Positions 5,906 through 44,910 of a DNA stretch of 64,000 nucleotides are shown here, one piece after another. Source of the DNA: Escherichia coli. GTDB lineage: Bacteria; Pseudomonadota; Gammaproteobacteria; Enterobacterales; Enterobacteriaceae. Both the position numbers and the translations under genes were made by a program. The stretch lies in the NCBI RefSeq assembly GCF_003790525.1, contig NZ_CP033635.1; one strand, written 5' to 3'. The notes below the pieces were generated by a model. The model saw nothing but the letters and a program-made list of their open reading frames with translations, was not told the DNA's origin and did no database searches. The stretch's first letter is position 1, and each line of letters opens with the position of its first letter.

Positions 5906-6769
5906 ATGAAACAACACCAATCGGCGGATAATTCTCAGGGCCAGCTTTACATTGTACCGACGCCAATCGGCAATCTGGCGGATATCACCCAGCGTGCGTT
6001 GGAGGTATTACAGGCCGTTGATCTGATTGCCGCCGAGGATACGCGTCACACCGGTTTATTGCTGCAACATTTTGGGATTAATGCTCGGTTGTTTGCGCTG
6101 CACGACCATAACGAACAACAAAAAGCCGAAACGCTGCTGGCGAAGCTGCAAGAGGGGCAAAACATTGCGCTGGTTTCCGATGCCGGAACGCCGCTAATTA
6201 ACGATCCTGGCTACCATCTGGTGCGTACCTGCCGTGAAGCGGGGATTCGCGTGGTGCCGCTACCCGGGCCGTGTGCTGCTATCACTGCGTTAAGCGCCGC
6301 GGGTTTACCATCCGATCGTTTTTGTTATGAAGGCTTTTTACCTGCCAAATCAAAAGGCCGCCGTGATGCGCTAAAAGCCATTGAAGCGGAGCCGCGCACG
6401 CTGATTTTTTATGAATCTACCCACCGCCTGTTAGATAGCCTGGAAGATATCGTTGCGGTATTAGGCGAATCCCGCTACGTCGTTCTGGCGCGTGAGCTGA
6501 CCAAAACCTGGGAAACCATTCACGGCGCGCCCGTTGGCGAGCTGCTGGCGTGGGTCAAAGAAGATGAAAACCGTCGCAAAGGCGAAATGGTACTGATTGT
6601 CGAAGGCCATAAAGCACAGGAAGAAGACTTACCCGCCGATGCCCTGCGCACGCTGGCGCTGTTGCAGGCAGAACTGCCACTGAAAAAAGCGGCGGCGCTG
6701 GCAGCAGAAATTCACGGCGTGAAGAAAAATGCGCTGTATAAGTATGCACTGGAGCAGCAGGGAGAGTGA
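5906..6769 (+). CDS. rsmI: 16S rRNA (cytidine1402-2'-O)-methyltransferase RsmI (287 aa)
   Basis: [28 protein letters not shown]...; tetrapyrrole-methylase-like fold; divergent from lpoA. Confidence 0.93.
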
Positions 6770-6773
6770 TTAC

Positions 6774-6806
6774 AGGCGTTGCAGCAGGAATAGCGCTACA
6801 ACGCCT
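6774..6806. terminator. Hairpin between the convergent rsmI and agaI genes (probable bidirectional terminator)
   Basis: Inverted repeat aggcgttg...caacgcct in the 49-bp convergent intergenic gap. Confidence 0.5.
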
Positions 6807-6818
6807 TTACCAGGCGAG

Positions 6819-7586
6819 TTAACGACGACACATTTCATCAATCACGCATGTGAAATGGTTATGCAGCCATAAAAACGAAGCCGGGATAGCGGTAGAGACT
6901 TTAGCCGTGAGAAAACGTTCTGTCGCATCCTGCTTTCCTTCGCCAGTCACCAGTAGCAAAACTTCGCGGGTATTGAGAATATCCTTCAGGCCTAAGGTGA
7001 TCCCACGAGTCACGGGACGGCCCGCGGTTTTTAACATCTCATGTTGCTGTGTTCTGGCATCAAGTTGACTGATATGGCAGGCCGGTTGCAGGCTTTCTCC
7101 CGGTTCGTTCAGCCCAAGATGACCGTTTTTCCCCAATCCGAGAACGCATAAATCCAGACCGCCTTTGCGCGCAATCAGGTTCGTTACCCGTTCGCACTCT
7201 GTCTCATTTATCTCTTCAGAGCGAAAGCTGATGAGCTGGTCTTCACGCAGCCCCAGCGGCTGCACGATATGCTGTTGTAGGAAAGTTTCGCAGGTGCCAG
7301 GCATTGTTAATGGCAGATCCACCCATTCGTCGAGCTTCACGAAGGTGAGCTGGCTGACATCAACCTGCTGCTGGTGGATTTTTTCTACCAGATAATGATA
7401 CGTCAGTAATGGCGTGGCTCCGGTCGCCAGGCAAATCACGGCATCCGGTTTACTACGGATCACGGCCAATAAATATTCGCTGGCACGTTCACTTAACGCC
7501 GTATAGTTTTCAACTTGTTGAAGGGTTTGCACAGGATGAAATTCCTTAAGTAAAGAGGCACCGCCAGACGCAGTGCCTCGTTCCAT
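6819..7586 (-). CDS. agaI: Putative galactosamine-6-phosphate deaminase/isomerase AgaI (NagB family)
   Basis: ORF 255 aa, NagB-like; last gene of the agaS-kbaY-agaBCDI operon; exact start uncertain by a few codons. Confidence 0.88.
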   Translation of the reverse strand: MERGTASGGASLLKEFHPVQTLQQVENYTALSERASEYLLAVIRSKPDAVICLATGATPLLTYHYLVEKIHQQQVDVSQLTFVKLDEWVDLPLTMPGTCETFLQQHIVQPLGLREDQLISFRSEEINETECERVTNLIARKGGLDLCVLGLGKNGHLGLNEPGESLQPACHISQLDARTQQHEMLKTAGRPVTRGITLGLKDILNTREVLLLVTGEGKQDATERFLTAKVSTAIPASFLWLHNHFTCVIDEMCRR

Positions 7587-8378
7587 TTACAAAATGCCGA
7601 ATGCGGAACAAACAATAGAGAGCACAAAAGTCACGCCGATTAACAGCACCGGATGCGCTTTTTTCACCCGCAGGAAGTAATACATCAGCAGGGTGTAGGC
7701 CATCGGTAAAATGTTCGGGAAGACTTTATCGAAGAAATCCTGCTGCAGTGCGACGCTGTGGGTACTGTCGATGGCAAACGATGTCACCACGTTAATATGC
7801 ACATACGAAGCGATCAGCCCGCCGATTACCGTGATCCCGAGGATGGTTGCCGAACGAGCAATCATCTGCGAGTTCTTTCGCACTTTATCGATCGCCTTCA
7901 CGCCGACTGAATAACCGACGTGGGTCCAGCCGACGCGCAGGAAGAAGATAAGCAGGTAAACGGCGAAAAACAAAATCGGCCCCAACAGGTTTCCCTGGCT
8001 GGCAAATGATGAGCAAATTCCCGCCATAATCGGCAATAAGGTAAACCAGAAAATCGCATCGCCAATCCCGGCGATTGGGCCAAACAGTGCCACTTTGAGG
8101 CCTTTAATGGTGTCGCGGTTTTCTCCTTTTTCTTCCATCGAAATTAATAACCCCATCAGGAATCCGACCAGATTCGGGTGGGTATTAATAAATTCGAGGT
8201 TATCTTTCATCGCCGCGCTTAGGCCCGGTTTGTCGTCCTTATAAATCTTTTTCAGGATCGGCAACATCGCCCAGGTAAAACCGCCCGCCTGCATCCTTTC
8301 GTAGTTAAAGCTCGCTTGCAGCAGTGACGAACGAAAGCCCAGACGGGTGATATCTTTTTTACTGATTTCAGATCCCAT
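7587..8378 (-). CDS. agaD: PTS galactosamine-specific EIID component AgaD (263 aa)
   Basis: ORF 7587-8489 trimmed to MGSEISKKDITRLGFRSSLLQASFNYERMQA (mannose-family IID signature). Confidence 0.92.
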   Translation of the reverse strand: MGSEISKKDITRLGFRSSLLQASFNYERMQAGGFTWAMLPILKKIYKDDKPGLSAAMKDNLEFINTHPNLVGFLMGLLISMEEKGENRDTIKGLKVALFGPIAGIGDAIFWFTLLPIMAGICSSFASQGNLLGPILFFAVYLLIFFLRVGWTHVGYSVGVKAIDKVRKNSQMIARSATILGITVIGGLIASYVHINVVTSFAIDSTHSVALQQDFFDKVFPNILPMAYTLLMYYFLRVKKAHPVLLIGVTFVLSIVCSAFGIL

Positions 8379-9171
8379 TGCTGTAGTCCTCTTCTTCATT
8401 TTTACTGGCAACGGGCTGCGGTTGCGCTTGCTGCCGGGATTTCGCATTGAAAAACTCATACACCGCAAAGCCTGCGCCCAGCACGGCAACCGGCAACAGG
8501 TTGCTGACCTGGATGTAGCAAACGAACAGGAAACCGGCGATCAGGTAAGGGATATATTGCGCTTTGAACATCACGCGCAGCAGCAAGCCAAAACCAACGG
8601 CAGGCAGAATACCGCCAGCCACTTCAAAGCCGTGGGTCAGCCAGGCGGGCATCGCTTTCACCAGCGCCTGCATCGCCCCTTGTGCCAGGTAAGTACAGAG
8701 GAAAGCAATCACCGCATACGCTGAAGCGACGATGAGCATCGTTGTCCAGTTAAGTCGGGAAAATGCTGCCGTATCCGCCTCTTTTGCGCATTTATCGGCT
8801 TTGGTCATAAATAATGAGAAAGCGGAATAGAAGAACAGAATGACGTACTGCATTAACAAACTAAACGGCAGGCCAAGACCAATTGCCGTTTTGGCATCAA
8901 CGCCCGTAGACCATGCAATGACAGTGGTCATCAGACCCGCCATAATAGGGTTGGGCGGCTGAACACCACCTGCAGGGGTTAATCCGGCGAAAGCCAACTC
9001 TGTCAGGCCACCGGTAATTAAGCCAGTCTGAATATCACCGAGAATAGCACCTGTAAGGGTACAAACGATTATCGGGCGGAATAAAAATAAGGCTTCCAGC
9101 CAAAAATCAATCCCCAGAAAGAAAACTAACGCCGCCAGGGATAATCCCTGGAGTAGGGTTATTTCATGCAT
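8368..9171 (-). CDS. agaC: PTS galactosamine-specific EIIC component AgaC (267 aa)
   Basis: ORF 267 aa, mannose-family IIC; overlaps the agaD start by 11 bp. Confidence 0.92.
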   Translation of the reverse strand: MHEITLLQGLSLAALVFFLGIDFWLEALFLFRPIIVCTLTGAILGDIQTGLITGGLTELAFAGLTPAGGVQPPNPIMAGLMTTVIAWSTGVDAKTAIGLGLPFSLLMQYVILFFYSAFSLFMTKADKCAKEADTAAFSRLNWTTMLIVASAYAVIAFLCTYLAQGAMQALVKAMPAWLTHGFEVAGGILPAVGFGLLLRVMFKAQYIPYLIAGFLFVCYIQVSNLLPVAVLGAGFAVYEFFNAKSRQQAQPQPVASKNEEEDYSNGI

Positions 9172-9209
9172 TTTTATTACCTCAAACCAATATTAAGGCG
9201 ATTTTAGAT

Positions 9210-9686
9210 TTAGTCAGGGATTTGTTCTTTTTGATCGCCAGGGACGTCCTGAATGAAAACATTCACGCCACGTTGTTTAATAAAACGTAAGTCCGCGAGA
9301 TCCTGGTCATCGACATAAACTTTACTGCTGATTTGCTTTTTCCCTTCCGAGAAATGCATATTGCCGACGTTGACATCTTTCAGGTCAATACCACCTTCTA
9401 CCAATTTACGTACCGTTTGTGGCGTACGGCAAATCAGGAAGATCTTCTGATGCGGTGCAGCTTTGCCGATGACGTTAATGGTTTTTTCGATAGTAAAGAA
9501 ACGAATGCCAAAGCCGTAGGTTTCTGCGGTAATACCCATTAATTTCTGTTGAATATCATCGTTAGCGACAACATCATCCACGACTACCAACAGATTCGCA
9601 CCGATGGTGGATGTCCAGGTCACGCCAACCTGACCGTGAACCAGACGGTTATCAATACGGGTTAAGAGAATATTTGGACTGCTCAT
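9210..9686 (-). CDS. agaB: PTS galactosamine-specific EIIB component AgaB (158 aa)
   Basis: MSSPNILLTRIDNRLVHGQVGVTWT... (mannose-family IIB phosphohistidine motif). Confidence 0.92.
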   Translation of the reverse strand: MSSPNILLTRIDNRLVHGQVGVTWTSTIGANLLVVVDDVVANDDIQQKLMGITAETYGFGIRFFTIEKTINVIGKAAPHQKIFLICRTPQTVRKLVEGGIDLKDVNVGNMHFSEGKKQISSKVYVDDQDLADLRFIKQRGVNVFIQDVPGDQKEQIPD

Positions 9687-9852
9687 TGTGTAATCCTCAC
9701 CATAAAGTTGAATAATATAATTTTTTTAAATATATTATTGTTGCGATATTGTACTGATGTATTTATTAAGGTTTAGTCATCTCCTTTTCCATTAAGGCAC
9801 TCCCCGATATTAATCGGGAAGTACATTGGGATAAATCATAAAAAACTAATGA

Positions 9853-10725
<873 letters not shown>

Positions 10726-11880
10726 TTATGCCTGCCACGGATGAATGATTACGCCTTGCACCACGCGGTTAACGGTGCCACTGGCTGATGGGGTATCCGG
10801 CGTATTGCCCATGTGCAGCGACTGCATCAGTGCAAACGTCTGGGCGTACATCAGGAAGCAAAATGCCTGCTCAACGTCGATAAAGTGACGGGACGGCGGC
10901 AGGATGATATGTGGACCGGCGGTAATAACGTCGTTGCTTTCCGCGGCGATGGCGATTACGCGCAATGCCTGGTTGTCACGGCGGAGTTCTGCCAGCAGAT
11001 CAAGATCATACTGACGGGTGTAAGGGTGGCTGGAGACAAACACCACCACCAGCGTTTCGTTATCGACCAGCGATTTCGGGCCATGACGGAATCCGGTCGG
11101 GGAATCATAAAAGGCCGCCAGTTTACCCGCCGTCAGTTCCAGCACTTTCAGCGCCGACTCGCGTGCTGCGCCCTGTAAGCCACCGCTGCCGAGATAAACG
11201 ATCCGTTTCCACGGTGCGTAACCAAACACACCTTCGCTGAAATCGCCCAGTGAGGTCAGGATCGCCTGGCAACGATCCGCCACATCGCGGAAGCTCTGGC
11301 TGTTGATCGTCTCAGGTGCGAAAACCGCGAGGCAGCTGGCCATCATGGTGGTAATGCTGCTGGTCATCGCGAAGCCGCGATCGTGCGTTTCTGCGGGCAT
11401 CAGCAGGGCAAACGCGTTGTCGCTGTTGATCGCGTTTTGGTAAAGAGCGCCCGCTTCGTTGCAGGTGATCGGCAGGTGATAGCATTCTGGTACAAATTGA
11501 TTTGCCAGTTCCACGGCGGCGACGCTTTCCGGGCTGTTGCCGGATCGACCGAAGGAGATCAACAGCAGCGGATGAGCTGGATTCAGGTAGTCCATCGGAT
11601 TAGTGACCAGATCGGTGGTCGGTACGGCGCTGAAGTTTTTACCGGTATGGCTGGCGAGCCACGGCGCGATGATGTCACCGATAAATGCCGAGGTTCCGGC
11701 TCCGGTCAGGATTACCCGCAGATTCTCTTTGCGCAGTAACGGTTCAAGGAAGTTATTGAGCGCGGAACGTAGCGCGTCGATGTTGGTGAGTGAACGGATC
11801 CATGCGCGAGGCTGATGGCGGATCTCTTCTTCAGTCCATGTACCGGTTGCGGCAGCAGCAGGGGTGTAATTTTCTGGCAT
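10726..11880 (-). CDS. agaS: Putative galactosamine-6-phosphate deaminase/isomerase AgaS (double SIS domain, 384 aa)
   Basis: ORF 384 aa; SIS-domain features; first gene of the agaS operon. Confidence 0.92.
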   Translation of the reverse strand: MPENYTPAAAATGTWTEEEIRHQPRAWIRSLTNIDALRSALNNFLEPLLRKENLRVILTGAGTSAFIGDIIAPWLASHTGKNFSAVPTTDLVTNPMDYLNPAHPLLLISFGRSGNSPESVAAVELANQFVPECYHLPITCNEAGALYQNAINSDNAFALLMPAETHDRGFAMTSSITTMMASCLAVFAPETINSQSFRDVADRCQAILTSLGDFSEGVFGYAPWKRIVYLGSGGLQGAARESALKVLELTAGKLAAFYDSPTGFRHGPKSLVDNETLVVVFVSSHPYTRQYDLDLLAELRRDNQALRVIAIAAESNDVITAGPHIILPPSRHFIDVEQAFCFLMYAQTFALMQSLHMGNTPDTPSASGTVNRVVQGVIIHPWQA

Positions 11881-11899
11881 AACTCAATCCTTAGTCTGA

Positions 11900-12060
11900 T
11901 GAACTTGACGTCGGGCGTTGTCGCTTTCGCTTACCTTTCGTTTCATTTCACTTGGTGATGTCTTTCGTTGATTAAAATCTATAGAAAAGAAACTGAAAGT
12001 TCAATGGAGAAAAAAGAAATAAAACGAAATTTGTGATCATTGAAAGAAAAGACAAGGGAA
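11900..12060 (-). promoter_or_regulatory. agaS promoter region with AgaR operator-like repeats
   Basis: Repeated CTTTCGTTTCATTTCAC / GAAACTGAAAG / AAAACGAAAT motifs upstream of agaS on the minus strand, resembling AgaR (DeoR-type) operators. Confidence 0.6.
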
Positions 12061-12099
12061 GATTAAAGGATTGCGTGATAACGTCGCTATGTTCACCGA

Positions 12100-12160
12100 T
12101 TGCCGGATGCGGCGTACCGTAGGTCGAAGAAGACGCGTCAGCGTCGCATCCGACACCGCT
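12100..12160. repeat. REP palindromic element immediately downstream of agaA
   Basis: gccggatgcggcgta...gacgcgtcagcgtcgcatccgac inverted REP pair. Confidence 0.7.
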
Positions 12161-12230
12161 GCACAGATCAAAAAGAAAGAAAAAGAAAGGCCTTACGGGG
12201 GAAGTGAAGGCCCAATAAAGGAGCAAACCA

Positions 12231-13364
12231 TCAAAACGAAGCTAATTGACCCTGAATCCAGATTTGTTGCACATGCAGCCCGCTATCCAGCGCAACGACG
12301 CTGGCGCGTTTGCCCGGTTTAAGCGATCCCAGAACACCATCAACACCCAGCATACGCGCCGGATGCAGCGATGCCATATGGATGGCTTCCGCAGGCGTTA
12401 CGCCCGTCAACTCGACCATGTTGCGCACTGCCGCATCGACAGACAGCGTACTGCCCGCCAGCCCACCGGACGCGGTACGGACAACGCCATCGTGCATCTG
12501 CACTTCTTCACCACATAACGTATAGCGACCATCCGGCATCCCGGCTGCCTGCATCGCGTCGGTGATCAGCACGATTCTCTCTTTCGCACAGCAACAACAC
12601 AGCGACATCGCCGCCGGATGTACATGATGACCATCGGCTATCAGTTCCAGCCAGGCGCGCTTGTCCGTTAATCCCGCGCCAACCATCCCCGGTTCGCGGT
12701 GATGTAAACCTGTCATCCCGTTATAGCAATGCACCAGGCCGTCGGCACCAGCGTCAAACGCGGCACGGGTTTGTTGCCAGGTCGCCGCGCTATGCCCCAG
12801 CATCACCCGTACGTTTTGCTGTTTAAGATAGCGGATGGCCTGCAATGCCCCTTCTTTTTCTGGTGCCAGCGCTACTACGCGCAAGGTGTGCTGAGAAACG
12901 GCAATCAATTGATCCAGCTCGGCAATTTCCAGCTCGCGAAACAGCTCCGGCGGATGCGCGCCTTTATTCTGCGGCGTGAAGTACGGTCCTTCGAGATAAC
13001 TCCCCAGCACTTGCGCACCAGGTCCGCCACGCTGGCAGCGTAGAGCAATACGTTTCAGCGCCGCATGAATGGTATTAAGCGGCGCGGTTACGGTGGTCGG
13101 TAACCAACTGCCGACACCTTCGCGTGCCTTGTGCATTGCCAGCTTGTCGAGCGCATCCGGCGCATCATCCATTACATCAACGCCCGCACCACCGTGTACA
13201 TGGGTGTCGATGTAAGCGGGACAGAGCAGTTCCGCATCGCGTTCAGTCACGCCCACTGGAATCGGTTCGATTGCTGCGATTACACCGTCAGCAATACGCA
13301 ACTGATGGTCATCGAGCCATCCCTCTTCAGTCAGCAGCCTTCTGGCGCGCAGAACGTGTGTCAT
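12231..13364 (-). CDS. agaA: N-acetylgalactosamine-6-phosphate deacetylase AgaA, full length (377 aa)
   Basis: ORF 12231-13385 trimmed to MTHVLRARRLLTEEGWLDDHQL; NagA-like amidohydrolase; intact, unlike the truncated K-12 allele. Confidence 0.9.
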   Translation of the reverse strand: MTHVLRARRLLTEEGWLDDHQLRIADGVIAAIEPIPVGVTERDAELLCPAYIDTHVHGGAGVDVMDDAPDALDKLAMHKAREGVGSWLPTTVTAPLNTIHAALKRIALRCQRGGPGAQVLGSYLEGPYFTPQNKGAHPPELFRELEIAELDQLIAVSQHTLRVVALAPEKEGALQAIRYLKQQNVRVMLGHSAATWQQTRAAFDAGADGLVHCYNGMTGLHHREPGMVGAGLTDKRAWLELIADGHHVHPAAMSLCCCCAKERIVLITDAMQAAGMPDGRYTLCGEEVQMHDGVVRTASGGLAGSTLSVDAAVRNMVELTGVTPAEAIHMASLHPARMLGVDGVLGSLKPGKRASVVALDSGLHVQQIWIQGQLASF

Positions 13365-13795
13365 ATTCCTTCCTCGACCGGACATTCCTCATGGCAGCGA
13401 CCAAGTTCGTCCACCAGACTGGTTAGCCCACGGTGTCCACACTCCAGCGCCTGCACACGGAACTCTTCACCGCTTAACCCTTCGCGTTCCAGCACCATTT
13501 CCAGTAATAGTTGCAAATTTGTGCCGGTGATCACTTCACAGCCCGGTTTTTGCATCGCCAGCGTTGAAGCTACGCGAAACGGCGTGCCGCCCAGCAAATC
13601 CGTCAGAAAAACAATGCCGTCTTCACAATCCAGTTGGACGATGGCCTCTTCAAGCTGCGATGTAAGCAGCGCGGTGCTTGAGGTTTCCGGAAAATCGATG
13701 GCGATAAACTGCGATTGCTCACCGAGAATTTGCTTCATTGCTTTTTCCATGCCGCTGGCAAATCCGCCATGCCCTGTCAAAATAATACTTAACAT
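13361..13795 (-). CDS. agaF: PTS N-acetylgalactosamine-specific EIIA component AgaF (144 aa)
   Basis: MLSIILTGHGGFASGMEKAMKQILG (mannose-family IIA); 4-bp overlap with the agaA start. Confidence 0.9.
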   Translation of the reverse strand: MLSIILTGHGGFASGMEKAMKQILGEQSQFIAIDFPETSSTALLTSQLEEAIVQLDCEDGIVFLTDLLGGTPFRVASTLAMQKPGCEVITGTNLQLLLEMVLEREGLSGEEFRVQALECGHRGLTSLVDELGRCHEECPVEEGI

Positions 13796-13812
13796 CTAAT
13801 ACCTCATTGTAT

Positions 13813-14697
13813 TTAAAGGAAATGGCAGAATTTACCGACGATGCCGAGAACCACGGTAACCGCAATCAGGCGCAGCGGACTCCAGCCGCGGCGTACCAGC
13901 CAGAACATGGTCAGGGTGTAGACCAGCGGTAAGAAGGCTGGCATCAGTTTGTCGATAACATCAGCCTGTAACTTAACCACTGCGTCGCCCGCGGTGATTT
14001 CCAGCGTGGTGCTTAAACGAACATAGGTTGCCACCAGCGCGCCGATTACCGTCATCCCAACGATAGATGCCGCATGGCCGACTTTTTTGGTATTTGCTTT
14101 AATGAGTGGAATCGCCGCCACGCCCATGCGGTAAGCATAATGCGCCAGACCAAAACGCAGCCCCAGGTGCACCACGTTGAACAGCACAATAAAGACGACA
14201 GCGCCAAGAATAGAGCCTTGTAGCGCGAGGCTTGCACCTATCCCGCCACAAATCGGCAGTAGCGTTAGCCAGAACATCGCATCGCCAATCCCGCCGAGCG
14301 GCGCACCGACGGCAATTTTGGTGCTCTGAATACTGTTAACGTCCTGCTTAGAACGCTCCATCGCAAGGATAATGCCGATAACAAACGTCACCAGAAACGG
14401 ATGGGTATTGAAGAAACCCATATGCCCCTTCATGGCGCGCGCCAGGTCGCGTTTATTAGTGTGGATCTTTTTCAGAGCAGGCAGCAGACCGTACAACCAG
14501 CCAGAAGCCTGCATACGTTCGTAGTTAAAAGACGCTTGTAACAGCATGGAACGCCAGGCGACGCGGTTGATATCTTTTTTCGTCAGCTCTGCGCCAATGC
14601 TCTGATCTTCATACACGTTTTCATTGACACCTGTCAGCAGTGTTTCTTCGTTTTCACTGACGTTCGGCAGGGTAGTTTGATTAGATGCCATCTTCAA
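13813..14697 (-). CDS. agaE: PTS N-acetylgalactosamine-specific EIID component AgaE
   Basis: ORF 294 aa; ...RVAWRSMLLQASFNYERMQASG IID signature; paralogue of AgaD. Confidence 0.9.
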   Translation of the reverse strand: MKMASNQTTLPNVSENEETLLTGVNENVYEDQSIGAELTKKDINRVAWRSMLLQASFNYERMQASGWLYGLLPALKKIHTNKRDLARAMKGHMGFFNTHPFLVTFVIGIILAMERSKQDVNSIQSTKIAVGAPLGGIGDAMFWLTLLPICGGIGASLALQGSILGAVVFIVLFNVVHLGLRFGLAHYAYRMGVAAIPLIKANTKKVGHAASIVGMTVIGALVATYVRLSTTLEITAGDAVVKLQADVIDKLMPAFLPLVYTLTMFWLVRRGWSPLRLIAVTVVLGIVGKFCHFL

Positions 14698-15460
14698 ATT
14701 CCTCTTTCTGTGCCGCAGGTTGAGTCGGTTCAGGAGATTTACGCAGCAAGTCGATCAGCGCCATCGCCAGCGCGGCGGCAGCAATAGCCAGCACCGGTAA
14801 CTTGAGCCAGGCTGCGGCAACAAAGCCCAGGATGAAGTAGGGGATGTAGACGTTTTTCATCATGATTTTCAGCAGCACGGCAAAACCGATTGCTGGCATG
14901 ATGCCACCCGCGACGCCGAGGCCGTCGATTAATCGTTGCGGCAGGACATCAATGATGGTTTTGGCATGTTCTGCGCCGAAGTAGATAGGCAGGAAAGCGC
15001 AGAGAAAATAGAACGTGCCGAGTGCCAGCAATGCCAGATAGTTCACGCGTTCAATGCCGCGAGTATCGGCGTTCTCCGCCATCCGGTCGCAGCGGGACAT
15101 CACGCCGGACATCACCGAGAACAGGAAGGTAATCCCCATCTGTACTGCGACAGCGAAAGGTACGGCGACACCGACCGCGACATCCGGTTTCACGCCAGTA
15201 GTAATGGCAAACGCCGTGCCGACGATAGTACCGATAATCACGTTAGGCGGTTGTGCGCCTGCCAGCGGGGCCAGCCCCATCCACACCAGTTCCAGCGTAC
15301 CGCCGGTTAAAATACCGGTATGCAGATCGCCAAGTACCAGTCCGACCAACGGGCCGAGGACCACCGGGCGGTGCATATGGGTTAGGCCGTTAAACATATC
15401 CAGGCCAGCGATAAAGGCGATAATGCCCAACGCGAATGCCTGCAACAGACTGATTTCCAT
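14681..15460 (-). CDS. agaW: PTS N-acetylgalactosamine-specific EIIC component AgaW, full length (259 aa)
   Basis: ORF 259 aa, IIC paralogue of AgaC; intact here. Confidence 0.9.
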   Translation of the reverse strand: MEISLLQAFALGIIAFIAGLDMFNGLTHMHRPVVLGPLVGLVLGDLHTGILTGGTLELVWMGLAPLAGAQPPNVIIGTIVGTAFAITTGVKPDVAVGVAVPFAVAVQMGITFLFSVMSGVMSRCDRMAENADTRGIERVNYLALLALGTFYFLCAFLPIYFGAEHAKTIIDVLPQRLIDGLGVAGGIMPAIGFAVLLKIMMKNVYIPYFILGFVAAAWLKLPVLAIAAAALAMALIDLLRKSPEPTQPAAQKEEFEDGI

Positions 15461-15470
15461 GATGAATCCC

Positions 15471-15944
15471 TCAAAGTAATTTAAAGAGGTCCACTGCAGG
15501 CTCTGTTGGGACGCCCTGAACGAAGCATTCCACCCCAGCGGCTTTCAGGTCGTTAAATGCTGCGATATCACCCGCATCCACAGAAACCGTTTTGGCGATT
15601 TGTTGCTTGCCATTGGCGTAGTGCATATTGCCAACGTTAATGCGATTCACCGGAACGCCACCTTTCACCAGCGTCAGGAAATCGGCAGGTGTTTTACAAA
15701 CCAGCAGGATTTTCTGTCGATCGGCGGCGCGATGAATGTTGTCGATGACTTTTTGCAGCGTCCAGAAACGTACGGCGATCCCTTCTGCCAGTACCATTTC
15801 CATCAGGTTTTGTTGTACCGGATCTTCGGCAACCTCATCGTTGGCTACCAGCACCAGATTTGCCCCCGCAAATCCGACCCACTGAACGCCGACCTGACCG
15901 TGAATCAAACGCTCATCAATCCGGCTTAAAACAATATTTGGCAT
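15471..15944 (-). CDS. agaV: PTS N-acetylgalactosamine-specific EIIB component AgaV (157 aa)
   Basis: ORF 15471-15980 trimmed to MPNIVLSRIDERLIHGQVGVQW. Confidence 0.9.
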   Translation of the reverse strand: MPNIVLSRIDERLIHGQVGVQWVGFAGANLVLVANDEVAEDPVQQNLMEMVLAEGIAVRFWTLQKVIDNIHRAADRQKILLVCKTPADFLTLVKGGVPVNRINVGNMHYANGKQQIAKTVSVDAGDIAAFNDLKAAGVECFVQGVPTEPAVDLFKLL

Positions 15945-15966
15945 AGCGTGTTCCTCTTTGTTTTGC

Positions 15967-17247
15967 TTATTGGCCTTCACAGGCTGTGTGGTACTGCGCC
16001 AGGATGTCCTGAATATGGTTGATAATGAGTTCCCGTGGTGTTGGCTGCAGCTCGCCGGAGCGAACTTTCACGTATTGCAGCGGCAAATACTGGCTGATCA
16101 GCGGTAGCGGAATTGGTGAATCCGCCAGATTACGAACCAGATGAGCGAAAGCGTCATCAATCTGGCTGTCCGGCCAGTAATAGCGCACGCGATCCGAGTA
16201 GCTATAACCACGCGCCAGACGACGCGCGTTGCCGTCACCGTGGTAGTGGCTTTGCCAGTATTCCGGGCGGTCGAGCATCACGTTTTCCAGCACCTGACGC
16301 AGACCAGAACAGGCTTTTGCTGGTACCAGTTCTTCTTCAATCGCCGCCAGAGAGAACAGAGCTTCACGCAGAGCAAAGGTCAGCGCCGGGCCAACTTTCA
16401 GAATGGCAAAGTGGTCAATCACCAGCTGGCGCAGCGATTGCGGCGTTTGGTAATCAGTAGAGTGCGCTTCGAAAATCAGCGTTTCGTAGTTTTCGACCAT
16501 CTGGCTTAAGGCGGTCGCTTTGACGGGCTGATAATCAATAACGTTGGTGTGATCGAATTCGACGCCGGGTTGAACCACCAGGGCAATAATGCGTGGCCAG
16601 ATGGCACTCAGACCTTGCTTTTCAAAGGCGTGACGATGGGCTTCCAGCGTGGCGCGGGCGGCATCCGGCGTGGTGACCGCCAGCTCGCTTAAGGTTTCAT
16701 GCGCGCCGCCAGGTACCGGTACTTCGGTACCAATGACATACTCCAGATCGGCCGCGCCAAAATGTTCACGGCAGGTTTCTTCCGCCACTTTCGCCAGACG
16801 AGCGGCGCGTTCGGCCACGATGTCATCAGTTAAGGGAATCGGATCGTCCTGACAGGACATGCTGCAATCAAGGTGAATTTTTTTGAATCCTGCCGCCACG
16901 TAGCTTTTAATCAAATCATCGGCATTGGCCATTGCCTGAGCGGCAGGCAGGTTTTGCCAGCGGTTTGGCCCCAGATGGTCGCCACCCAGAATCAACGCAT
17001 CCTGTGGGAAATTCAACGAGTCGGCGAGCTGACAAACAAAGCCGCGAAAATCGGCGGGCGTCATTCCGGTATAACCGCCGAACTGGTCCACCTGATTGGA
17101 GGTTGCTTCAATCAGTAACGGCGTTTGGTTTGCACTGGCGTAGCGGATTGCAGCTTCCAGCACCAGCGGATGTGCGGAACAAACGGCATAAATCCCATTT
17201 GTTTTGCCCTCTTTGTGCTGTCTCACCATTTCTGTCAGATGTTTCAC
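15967..17247 (-). CDS. kbaZ: Tagatose-bisphosphate aldolase non-catalytic subunit KbaZ (426 aa)
   Basis: [37 protein letters not shown]... Confidence 0.92.
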
Positions 17248-17495
17248 TTTCCTCTCCAGTTCAGATTACTGCGATATTAATCTTTCGTTTTGTTTCAGTT
17301 GATACTGCGCCATGGTGAGATAAAAATAAAACGAAAGATAATGGTTTTCTGATCTGATTCACAAAAGAAACATAATGAAAGCCACTGAAACGAGAGTAGC
17401 TTGCGCCAATGGGTAAGGTGGGCTTGCATTTGCTTAATAGAAAGGCGTTAATAGGCAAAACGAAATGAAACGAAAGTTTTACGAAAGGACTTACT
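17248..17495. promoter_or_regulatory. Divergent kbaZ / agaR control region with multiple AgaR operator-like repeats
   Basis: ctttcgttttgtttcag, aaaacgaaagata, ctgaaacgagagt and aaaacgaaatgaaacgaaagttttacgaaagg repeats between the divergent kbaZ and agaR starts. Confidence 0.65.
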
Positions 17496-18305
17496 ATGAG
17501 TAATACCGACGCTTCAGGTGAGAAGCGAATGACAGGCACCAGCGAGCGACGAGAACAGATCATTCAGCGTCTGCGACAGCAAGGGAGTGTGCAGGTTAAC
17601 GATCTGTCGGCATTGTATGGCGTATCTACTGTGACGATCCGCAACGATCTGGCGTTTCTGGAAAAGCAGGGGATCGCTGTGCGTGCCTATGGTGGCGCGT
17701 TGATCTGCGATAGCACAACGCCGTCAGTCGAGCCATCAGTGGAAGATAAAAGCGCACTGAACACCGCGATGAAACGCAGCGTTGCGAAAGCTGCCGTTGA
17801 GTTGATTCAGCCTGGTCATCGGGTGATCCTCGACTCCGGGACCACCACTTTTGAGATTGCTCGTCTGATGCGCAAGCACACCGACGTAATTGCGATGACC
17901 AACGGTATGAACGTGGCTAATGCGTTGCTGGAAGCGGAAGGCGTTGAGCTGCTGATGACCGGGGGGCATTTGCGCCGTCAGTCGCAATCTTTTTACGGTG
18001 ATCAGGCTGAGCAATCGCTGCAAAATTACCACTTCGATATGCTGTTTCTTGGTGTAGATGCGATCGATCTGGAGCGCGGCGTCAGCACGCATAATGAAGA
18101 TGAAGCCCGTTTAAACCGTCGGATGTGCGAAGTTGCGGAACGGATCATCGTGGTCACCGATTCCAGTAAGTTCAACCGTTCCAGTTTACATAAGATCATT
18201 GATACTCAACGTATCGACATGATCATTGTTGATGAAGGCATTCCTGCGGATAGTCTGGAAGGACTGCGAAAGGCTGGGGTTGAAGTGATTCTGGTCGGGG
18301 AGTGA
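17496..18305 (+). CDS. agaR: DeoR-family transcriptional repressor AgaR of the aga regulon (269 aa)
   Basis: N-terminal HTH (..[26 protein letters not shown]..) and DeoR C-terminal sugar-phosphate-binding domain. Confidence 0.93.
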
Positions 18306-18311
18306 GAAAGG

Positions 18312-18347
18312 GTGCCCGCTGGTCAACACGAATGCGTTCGGCGGGCA
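18312..18347. terminator. Hairpin between the convergent agaR and yhaV genes (bidirectional terminator)
   Basis: tgcccgctggtcaacacgaatgcgttcggcgggca inverted repeat. Confidence 0.6.
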
Positions 18348-18359
18348 TTGTGAACACCA

Positions 18360-18824
18360 TCAATGGGTTTCTTCTGTCTCTCGGGTGAGGGTTTCCCAGT
18401 CGGCAGGAGGATGTCCTCTTTTTAACATTTTGCTGAATACGGTATAGGCATCTGTTTTTTTACCGTAGGTGCGCAGCGTGTTTTCATCGTTCATCCATCC
18501 CAGAATGATGACTTTCTCTTTTTCACTATAACGAAAGAAGAGACGATAACGACCAGCACCAAATTTTACCCGTGACCAGTCTTTATTTTTCCCAGAGCCT
18601 AACGACTTGCCATGACGGAATGCCGGTGATGATGGATTGACCGTGATATGCTCCTCAATCACTTTATGGACTACCGCCAATAACTTTGTGGCGGCTTTTC
18701 TCTGATAATTTTCAGGATCTTTTCCCTTTAATGTCTCGACTTCGGCAACTAAAGCGTCGTAGGTTTCCTGAAAACAGGGATGAGCATATAGCGCCCAACC
18801 ATTAACCCTTTGTGGAAAATCCAT
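18360..18824 (-). CDS. yhaV: Type II toxin YhaV (ribosome-dependent mRNA interferase, 154 aa)
   Basis: ORF 154 aa directly downstream of prlF with overlapping stop/start. Confidence 0.9.
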   Translation of the reverse strand: MDFPQRVNGWALYAHPCFQETYDALVAEVETLKGKDPENYQRKAATKLLAVVHKVIEEHITVNPSSPAFRHGKSLGSGKNKDWSRVKFGAGRYRLFFRYSEKEKVIILGWMNDENTLRTYGKKTDAYTVFSKMLKRGHPPADWETLTRETEETH

Positions 18825-19159
18825 TATTCGTCGTCGCCAATCTCATCGTCAATGTTGACGTCCATGCCAGCGACAAGTTTCTTTCCTTGTTGAGTGTCGA
18901 ATGGACGAGTTTTTTGCGGGTTGTTCTGGATATCTGCATCCAGAAAACGCAAAAATGCATTCATAGTATGATCCTCCTGTTCATCTCCCAGTCGGCACAT
19001 AAATACTTGCCCACCAGGCAGAATTTCGTAATGAATGCTGTCCAGGCCTGGCTTCAGTTTTAAGGCCTCACGCACTGGCGCGGGGATAGTTGTTTGTCCG
19101 CGTATCGTGACCTTTGATTCAGTGGTCAGTACAGCGTTAGAGCGAGCATTAGCGGGCAT
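18824..19159 (-). CDS. prlF: Antitoxin PrlF/SohA (AbrB/SpoVT-like swapped-hairpin fold, 111 aa)
   Basis: MPANARSNAVLTTESKVTIRGQTTIPAPVREALKLKPG...; acidic C-terminus IDDEIGDDE. Confidence 0.9.
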   Translation of the reverse strand: MPANARSNAVLTTESKVTIRGQTTIPAPVREALKLKPGLDSIHYEILPGGQVFMCRLGDEQEDHTMNAFLRFLDADIQNNPQKTRPFDTQQGKKLVAGMDVNIDDEIGDDE

Positions 19160-44794: not shown

Positions 44795-44910
44795 CGCAAA
44801 ACTGCCTGATGCGCTATGCTTATCAGGCCTACGAGGTTTCTGCAATGTATTGAATTTGCATGTTTTTGTAGGCCGGATAAGGCGTTCACGCCGCATCCGG
44901 CATGAACAAC
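44795..44910. repeat. Second BIME/RIP-like composite REP element, paralogous to the one at 43590-43700
   Basis: ...gcctgatgcgctatgcttatcaggcctacg...ttgaatttgcatgtttttgtaggccggataaggcgttcacgccgcatccggca. Confidence 0.75.

Follow-up and report, generated by a model that had tools for sequence, protein, structure and literature searches.

An apparently wild-type, undeleted agaW-agaE-agaF-agaA segment in a phylogroup-F-like Escherichia coli

Introduction

GalNAc and GalN are mucin-derived sugars, and the pathway for their use therefore bears on gut colonisation. Which state of the aga/gam cluster does the present locus carry, the intact one or one of the broken forms, and can its bearer be expected to grow on both sugars? 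An intact aga/gam operon in E. coli is already known biology (Brinkkötter et al. 2000; Hu, Patel & Mukherjee 2013, PMC3668189). We compared the window, by which we mean the whole 64-kb stretch of DNA analysed here, with the E. coli C regulon described in those papers, using the sequence of ATCC 8739, as well as with K-12 and O157:H7. For the part that each gene plays in the pathway, and for the phenotypes of E. coli C, K-12, and O157:H7, we relied on Hu et al. 2013 (PMC3668189).

Results and Discussion

The agaW-agaE-agaF-agaA segment

Re-translation showed that the segment at 12231-15460 is read on the minus strand and is bounded exactly by the agaW start codon and the agaA stop codon. Four genes lie in it: agaW (14681-15460, minus, 259 aa), the IIC component of the PTS GalNAc transporter; agaE (13813-14691, minus, 292 aa), its IID component; agaF (13361-13795, minus, 144 aa), the PTS IIA common to the GalNAc and GalN systems; and agaA (12231-13364, minus, 377 aa), a GalNAc-6-P deacetylase of the NagA family. 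The strand of these genes had gone unmentioned in the first-pass annotation. All four begin with ATG, end in a stop codon, and have a length that is a multiple of three, with a GAGG/AGGA-type ribosome-binding site 5′ of the start. We found no internal stop in any of the four and no frameshift, either of which would have told against the first-pass claim that they are full-length. That claim is further borne out by full-length NCBIfam matches: AgaW to the AgaW equivalog NF040757 (410.8 bits against a cut-off of 300), AgaE to NF040760 (617.6 against 500, profile positions 1-292 of 292), AgaF to NF040761 (217.5 against 130, positions 1-144 of 144), and AgaA to TIGR00221 nagA (287.1 against 225.65). 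The overlaps reported earlier for agaW/agaE and agaF/agaA are likewise real, the former being 11 bp (14681-14691) and the latter a 4-bp ATGA overlap (13361-13364); agaE and agaF are separated by a 17-bp gap. Four neighbouring frames of 144-377 codons on the same strand cannot have arisen by chance. An antisense ORF at 13131-13799 (plus, 222 aa) has no Pfam match and is unannotated in the reference genomes, and we regard it as spurious.

The remaining cluster and its control regions

The segment sits within a cluster (6819-18305) in which all 13 aga/gam ORFs are intact and have ribosome-binding sites upstream. All 13 genes occur in the canonical order, agaR / kbaZ-agaV-agaW-agaE-agaF-agaA / agaS-kbaY-agaB-agaC-agaD-agaI, and the order and coordinates agree with those that RefSeq gives for the same locus, identical or nearly so in sequence, in SC516, SMS-3-5, and IAI39. 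Such close identity to annotated genomes leaves no ambiguity about what the locus is. Ten of the 13 proteins match NCBIfam equivalog or subfamily models full-length above the curated cut-offs that served as our thresholds, and agaB, agaC, and agaD were assigned by Pfam instead. Upstream of agaW are agaV, the PTS GalNAc IIB (15471-15944, minus, 157 aa; NF008508, 319.9 bits against 180), which is identical to its ATCC 8739 counterpart, and kbaZ (agaZ), the non-catalytic tagatose-bisphosphate aldolase subunit (15967-17247, minus, 426 aa, GTG start; NF012002, 896 against 707 bits). The DeoR-family regulon repressor gene agaR (17496-18305, plus, 269 aa; NF007316, 576.9 bits; NF040755 AgaR, 465.9 against 260) lies divergently. 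On the other side of agaA are agaS, a GalN-6-P deaminase/isomerase by its published function (PMC3668189; 10726-11880, minus, 384 aa; TIGR02815, 630.7 against 529.2 bits), kbaY (agaY), the catalytic subunit of the class II tagatose-1,6-bisphosphate aldolase (9853-10713, minus, 286 aa; NF009375, 666.4 against 542), and the PTS GalN components agaB (IIB; 9210-9686, minus, 158 aa, identical to ATCC 8739; PF03830, 165.6 bits), agaC (IIC; 8368-9171, minus, 267 aa; PF03609, 232.5 bits), and agaD (IID; 7587-8378, minus, 263 aa; PF03613, 309.9 bits). The last gene, agaI (6819-7586, minus, 255 aa; NF007291, 472 against 271 bits), encodes a NagB-like putative GalN-6-P isomerase.

In gene content and order the locus is of the E. 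coli C type: ATCC 8739 has the same 13 genes with the same order, orientation, and spacings and is collinear with the window without gaps from agaD to agaR. The two differ by about 3% nucleotide divergence, mostly synonymous, as well as in the end of AgaI and in the yraHIJK genes that ATCC 8739 carries.

The control regions are conserved with ATCC 8739 and K-12. The divergent kbaZ/agaR region (17248-17495) holds CTTTC repeats of the AgaR-operator type and differs from K-12 at 4 positions in 248 bp, whereas the agaA-agaS spacer (11881-12230), which aligns with both strains, contains a REP-like palindrome and, after it, the agaS promoter region, again with CTTTC repeats. We counted six CTTTC/GAAAG pentamers in the former (24 per kb) and seven in the latter (20 per kb) vs 3.1 per kb window-wide, a 6-8 fold enrichment. 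AgaR binding to the K-12 control sequences has been demonstrated (Ray & Larson, cited in PMC3668189). A consensus scan of 6600-18400 for sigma-70 promoters and intrinsic terminators gave 6 promoter-like sites vs 10.3 expected from shuffles, with none at the expected Pz or Ps positions on the minus strand; since the scan did no better than chance, the case for promoter function comes from conservation with K-12 only. Rfam at its gathering threshold gave no match in or near the cluster. An 84-aa ORF within the agaA-agaS spacer (11972-12226, minus) is also judged spurious, having no Pfam match and no annotation in the reference genomes.

Known inactivating lesions are absent

The lesions known to inactivate this cluster in other strains are all absent from the window. 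Aligned to it, the K-12-derived L002 lacks 2305 bp corresponding to approximately 12786-15090, which are present here in full. Together with the whole of agaE and agaF, the deletion takes 410 nt from the 3′ end of agaW and 579 nt from the 5′ end of agaA, and its junction falls at a GGTCGC microhomology whose two copies are found in the window at 12780-12785 and 15085-15090. K-12 thus keeps agaW′ and ′agaA fragments, annotated as partial pseudogenes for a IIC subunit and a deacetylase, without agaE or agaF, whereas its agaR, kbaZ, agaV, agaS, kbaY, agaB, agaC, agaD, and agaI are orthologous to those of the window with 1-13 amino acid differences. Hu et al. 2013 (PMC3668189) report this same deletion, of 2.3 kb, and describe K-12 as Aga− Gam−, in accord with the first-pass description of the K-12 locus. 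The K-12-type agaW′-′agaA fusion junction (GTTGCCAGGTCGCAGCGAGACATCAC) is not found in the window, where its two flanks lie 2305 bp apart.

The lesions of O157:H7 (EDL933/Sakai type) were sought by direct codon comparison with strain 7636. This strain shares an intact agaVWEFA and has AgaW and AgaE proteins 100% identical to ours; however, its agaC codon 8 and agaI codon 72 are TAG (Gam−), and both are CAG in the window. A single AgaF Gly91Ser missense abolishes GalNAc use in spinach-outbreak O157:H7 isolates (PMC3668189). By the same direct comparison this substitution is absent, codon 91 being GGC.

Pathway and predicted growth

With these genes intact, the strain is predicted to grow on both GalNAc and GalN (Aga+ Gam+). 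AgaV, AgaW, and AgaE together with AgaF would make up a PTS of the mannose family, importing GalNAc as GalNAc-6-P, and AgaB, AgaC, and AgaD with the same AgaF would take up GalN as GalN-6-P. GalNAc-6-P would be deacetylated by AgaA (or NagA), and AgaS would carry out the deamination and isomerisation of GalN-6-P to tagatose-6-P. Phosphorylation of tagatose-6-P would fall to a housekeeping phosphofructokinase whose gene lies beyond the window, and KbaY/KbaZ would cleave the resulting tagatose-1,6-bisphosphate. The promoters 5′ of kbaZ, agaS, and agaR are expected to be repressed by AgaR. In the published genetics the GalN-6-P deaminase is AgaS and not AgaI, and both agaA and agaI are dispensable, the former because nagA substitutes (Hu et al. 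2013, PMC3668189).

The first-pass annotation had listed both PTS sets, the deacetylase, the deaminase/isomerases, and the aldolase, and all of these stand, as AgaVWE, AgaBCD, AgaF, AgaA, AgaS, AgaI, KbaY/KbaZ, and AgaR are intact. It had also called the pathway complete; this holds for the 13 cluster genes but is overstated for the pathway, because the aga/gam cluster has no dedicated tagatose-6-phosphate kinase gene. By the annotation of the collinear SMS-3-5 region, pfkA and pfkB lie outside the 64-kb window. The genes ptsH/ptsI and nagA likewise lie outside it. The kinase step is not mentioned in Hu et al. 2013 (PMC3668189); in other papers it is assigned to the Pfk enzymes or, in the older literature, to AgaZ.

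Residue conservation and selection

Intact genes could nonetheless encode a silent or impaired pathway (Aga− and/or Gam−), through a lineage-specific missense or a defect elsewhere. The published case in which one missense was enough to stop GalNAc use (PMC3668189) lends this reading some weight, and several residues set the lineage apart from ATCC 8739, K-12, and O157:H7, namely AgaF V53, AgaA A71, L108, Y179, and D292, AgaC F18, AgaD K168, KbaY D111, and AgaR M12; AgaF V53, AgaC F18, AgaD K168, and AgaR M12 are examples of candidate causes. However, the changes are small in number and most of them are conservative. Twelve cluster proteins differ from ATCC 8739 at 0-9 residues, AgaI being the exception. 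AgaW is identical in ATCC 8739 and O157:H7 strain 7636, AgaE has one difference (V224I) from ATCC 8739, AgaF has one (V53A) from both strains, AgaA has six substitutions relative to ATCC 8739, and AgaR has one (M12V) relative to K-12 and ATCC 8739. Pooled over 12 genes, dN/dS is 0.045, which indicates continuing purifying selection. Additionally, the same protein alleles occur in many phylogroup-F genomes, as the WP accessions shared by SC516, SMS-3-5, and IAI39 attest.

The key catalytic residues are also kept. When AgaF is aligned with solved homologues, His9 falls on the phospho-His10 of IIA-Man and Gly91 on a conserved Gly. AgaA residues 3-374 align to the NagA structures 7nut and 2vhl, retaining the H55-x-H57 motif; its motifs idtHvHgg, lgHs, vHcyN, and liTDa preserve the metal-binding HxH and the downstream His/Asp ligands. 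AgaV has a RIDERLIHGQ motif with His15, whose role we take from what is known of the family. The IIA, IIB, IIC, and IID components of the AgaV/W/E/F mannose-family enzyme II are all present, each with an equivalog match. These proteins share folds and families with ManXYZ and NagA (EIIA-Man, PTSIIB_sorb, EII-Sor, EIID-AGA, and the NagA amidohydrolases), including the conserved phosphorylation His and metal-binding motif, but ManXYZ and NagA are paralogues with other sugar specificity, and the window proteins score best on Aga-specific equivalog models. Altogether, we hold an impaired pathway to be improbable and prefer the reading that the segment is very probably the wild-type, undeleted agaW-agaE-agaF-agaA of a 13-gene aga/gam regulon, lying on the minus strand of a phylogroup-F-like strain that is nearly identical to SMS-3-5.

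The apparent intactness might instead be an artefact of start placement, with a lost true start or a frameshift masked by a fortuitous ORF, given that a mechanical ORF list yields greater lengths (384 aa for agaA, 294 aa for agaE) than the RefSeq-annotated starts of same-sequence strains that we used, but this can be given next to no credence, being already refuted by the full-length alignment to models such as those for AgaE and AgaF and by the gap-free, end-to-end alignment of the RefSeq-start proteins of all four genes with their ATCC 8739 and O157:H7 orthologues, the alignment by which the first-pass annotation had proposed that its reading be checked.

The synonymous divergence of agaE and agaF is raised (dS of 0.15-0.18 vs 0.05-0.10 in most neighbouring genes). 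We considered a foreign import of these two genes and rejected it: SNPs relative to IAI39 fall in patches, the usual E. coli recombination mosaic, and the proteins are virtually unchanged.

Strain background and frequency of the intact state

The window is 99.99-100% identical to the phylogroup-F strain SMS-3-5 over all 64 kb vs approximately 97% to K-12 across the cluster and in both flanks, and so does not come from a K-12 derivative, in agreement with what had been concluded from the aga genes. The window also has no yraHIJK, and between exuR and exuT it carries a CS1-type fimbrial operon that is missing from a K-12 genome. A K-12 derivative that regained an intact aga locus through repair or replacement, transduction from a different strain being one route, is a bare possibility in that the flanking order garD, prlF-yhaV, agaR is as in K-12, but it is vanishingly unlikely and already refuted by flanks that are not 100% identical to K-12, by the identity with SMS-3-5, and by the fimbrial gene content. 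The result is thus a natural, phylogroup-F-like, non-K-12 E. coli with a predicted Aga+ Gam+ phenotype.

Among 5426 complete E. coli genomes, 4929 (approximately 91%) have the intact segment and 371 have the K-12-type junction. Most E. coli therefore have the intact state, which is the default of the species and does not set this strain apart; the broken locus of laboratory K-12 is the exception. The locus has little import beyond annotation and poses no new question.

The AgaI C-terminus

AgaI is 255 aa here vs 251 aa in ATCC 8739, and its C-terminal ~13 residues are unlike those of K-12 and ATCC 8739; relative to ATCC 8739 there are 12 differing aligned positions, the replaced C-terminal end included. 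The ends differ because homology stops at approximately 6862, where ATCC 8739 has the yraHIJK fimbrial operon. In the window, the end of agaI lies 49 bp from rsmI. It is possible, though we put it forward only tentatively as the less likely course of events, that the window retains an ancestral rsmI-agaI arrangement and that in K-12, C, and O157 the final ~14 codons of agaI were the insertion site of an AT-rich yraHIJK island, which replaced the C-terminus. If true, the insertion might go some way towards accounting for the lack of any role for AgaI in the C and O157:H7 strains that were studied.

The agaW-agaE-agaF-agaA segment is intact

The segment at 12231-15460 on the minus strand runs exactly from the agaA stop codon to the agaW start codon upon re-translation. 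It encodes AgaW (14681-15460, 259 aa), AgaE (13813-14691, 292 aa), AgaF (13361-13795, 144 aa), and AgaA (12231-13364, 377 aa), all on the minus strand. Re-translation found no internal stops in the four genes, which confirms that they are full-length, as the first-pass annotation had stated. The junctions that it described were also recovered: an 11-bp overlap between agaW and agaE and a 4-bp one (ATGA) between agaF and agaA. Each gene has an ATG start preceded by a GAGG/AGGA-type ribosome-binding site. The agaA and agaE starts were taken from the RefSeq annotation of strains with the same sequence; in a mechanical ORF list, both genes run on to in-frame starts farther upstream.

Judged against the curated NCBIfam cut-offs, all four proteins match over the full profile length: AgaW with 410.8 bits (cut-off 300), AgaE with 617.6 (cut-off 500), AgaF with 217.5 (cut-off 130), and AgaA with 287.1 (TIGR00221, cut-off 225.65). 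In AgaF, His9 lines up with His10, the phosphorylated residue of IIA-Man, and Gly91 with a conserved glycine. AgaA residues 3-374 can be aligned to solved NagA structures, keeping the HxH motif as well as the His and Asp motifs downstream of it. By megablast, the segment matches 5,316 of 5,426 complete E. coli genomes, and the annotation beneath these matches is agaW, agaE, agaF, and a nagA-family deacetylase (agaA).

The other nine genes of the cluster are likewise intact and identified: agaR (17496-18305) on the plus strand, and kbaZ (15967-17247), agaV (15471-15944), agaS (10726-11880), kbaY (9853-10713), agaB (9210-9686), agaC (8368-9171), agaD (7587-8378), and agaI (6819-7586) on the minus strand. 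Both PTS sets and the deacetylase, AgaS, AgaI, and aldolase genes are thus present, as had been claimed. Directly downstream of agaR lies the prlF-yhaV type II toxin-antitoxin pair (18360-19159, minus strand), an ordinary arrangement also found in K-12.

Known inactivating lesions are absent

A 2.3-kb deletion renders K-12 Aga- Gam- (Hu et al. 2013, PMC3668189). Aligning the window to a K-12-derived genome (L002), we found 2305 bp missing in K-12, equivalent to ~12786-15090 and matching the published deletion, whereas the window keeps the whole segment. The IIC and deacetylase genes of L002 are annotated as partial pseudogenes, and its deletion junction (L002:7436-7675) lies at a 6-bp GGTCGC microhomology, found in the window at 12780-12785 and 15085-15090. 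In O157:H7, amber codons have been described in agaC (codon 8) and agaI (codon 72), and spinach-outbreak isolates carry AgaF Gly91Ser (PMC3668189). By direct comparison, both amber codons are TAG in O157:H7 strain 7636 but CAG in the window, and AgaF codon 91 is GGC.

The intact segment has been in the literature since 2000. It is present at coverage of at least 80% in 4,929 of the 5,426 complete genomes, and the K-12-type junction in 371; the window therefore represents the majority state of the species. Since at least one chicken isolate (TUM12357, 5.03 Mb) is among the junction carriers, the deletion is not restricted to laboratory K-12 derivatives.

Pathway and regulation

Following the published pathway (PMC3668189), GalNAc would be imported as GalNAc-6-P by AgaVWE with AgaF, and GalN as GalN-6-P by AgaBCD with the same AgaF. 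AgaA would deacetylate GalNAc-6-P, although agaA is dispensable because NagA can substitute. AgaS, not AgaI, would deaminate and isomerize GalN-6-P to tagatose-6-P, KbaY/KbaZ would cleave tagatose-1,6-bisphosphate, and AgaR would repress three promoters. We found no dedicated gene for the kinase step within the cluster; the literature assigns this step to Pfk enzymes or, historically, AgaZ, and neither pfkA nor pfkB is in the window. The first-pass description of a complete pathway therefore holds only if housekeeping genes are assumed. The genes are intact, the residues are conserved, the known lesions are lacking, and an Aga+ Gam+ phenotype is predicted.

Across the 248 positions of the kbaZ/agaR control region, 4 differ from K-12. 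Upstream of agaS, the sequence is likewise conserved except for a REP-like palindrome in the agaA-agaS spacer (~12100-12160, downstream of agaA), which is arranged as in ATCC 8739 and unlike K-12, with indels of ~29 bp on either side in the alignment. The kbaZ/agaR and agaA-agaS spacers contain 20-24 CTTTC/GAAAG pentamers per kb versus 3.1 per kb window-wide, an enrichment consistent with predicted AgaR operators. A simple sigma-70 consensus scan of 6600-18400 scored 6 promoter-like sites where shuffled sequence predicted 10.3, and so added no information on the promoters.

Conservation and origin of the cluster

Comparison with reference aga loci, suggested in the first pass, showed 0-9 amino-acid differences per protein from ATCC 8739, used to represent the E. 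coli C-type regulon; AgaI alone falls outside this range, owing to a replaced C-terminal end. O157:H7 AgaW and AgaE are identical to those of the window. Nucleotide differences from ATCC 8739 are mostly synonymous (17 synonymous and 0 non-synonymous in agaW, 30 and 1 in agaE), with a pooled dN/dS of 0.045 over 12 genes. Relative to ATCC 8739, the dS of agaE and agaF is 0.15-0.18, above most neighbouring genes. SNPs relative to IAI39 are patchy, concentrated at 10900-11400, 13400-13900, 14400-15400, and 17400-17900 (up to 20 per 500 bp), with nearly identical stretches in between. Together, these patches and the raised dS look like the usual mosaic left by homologous recombination.

Many isolates grouping with SMS-3-5 match the 12.4-kb cluster at 100% identity; IAI39 and CE10 match it at 99.1% and K-12 at ~97%. 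The whole window is collinear with SMS-3-5, with 4 mismatches in 36.4 kb and 0 in the other 28 kb, bearing out the view that it is not from a K-12 derivative.

The agaI 3′ end and other features

Homology to K-12, ATCC 8739, and O157:H7 breaks off at ~6862 within the agaI 3′ end, yielding a 255-aa AgaI whose last ~13 residues differ. The yraHIJK fimbrial operon, which separates agaI from rsmI in those three genomes, is absent from the window, and rsmI (ending at 6769) lies 49 bp from agaI. This direct junction is common to 1,821 of the 5,426 genomes.

A CS1-type fimbrial operon (~49573-54685, plus strand) lies between exuR (48507-49283) and exuT (54761-56059), both on the minus strand. Its four genes encode a chaperone, a major subunit, a TcfC-like usher, and a CfaE/CblD-family tip adhesin, as annotated in the identical SMS-3-5 sequence. 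This site holds an operon in 1,904 of the 5,426 genomes; the window allele is ~85% identical to most (1683 genomes in the 80-90% band) and at least 99% identical in 85. Rfam searches also placed rnpB at 25569-25945 (plus strand) and gave a borderline match to the ES036 (CssrF) sRNA between yqjF and yqjG (44825-44865, minus strand; 38.4 bits versus a gathering score of 37.6).
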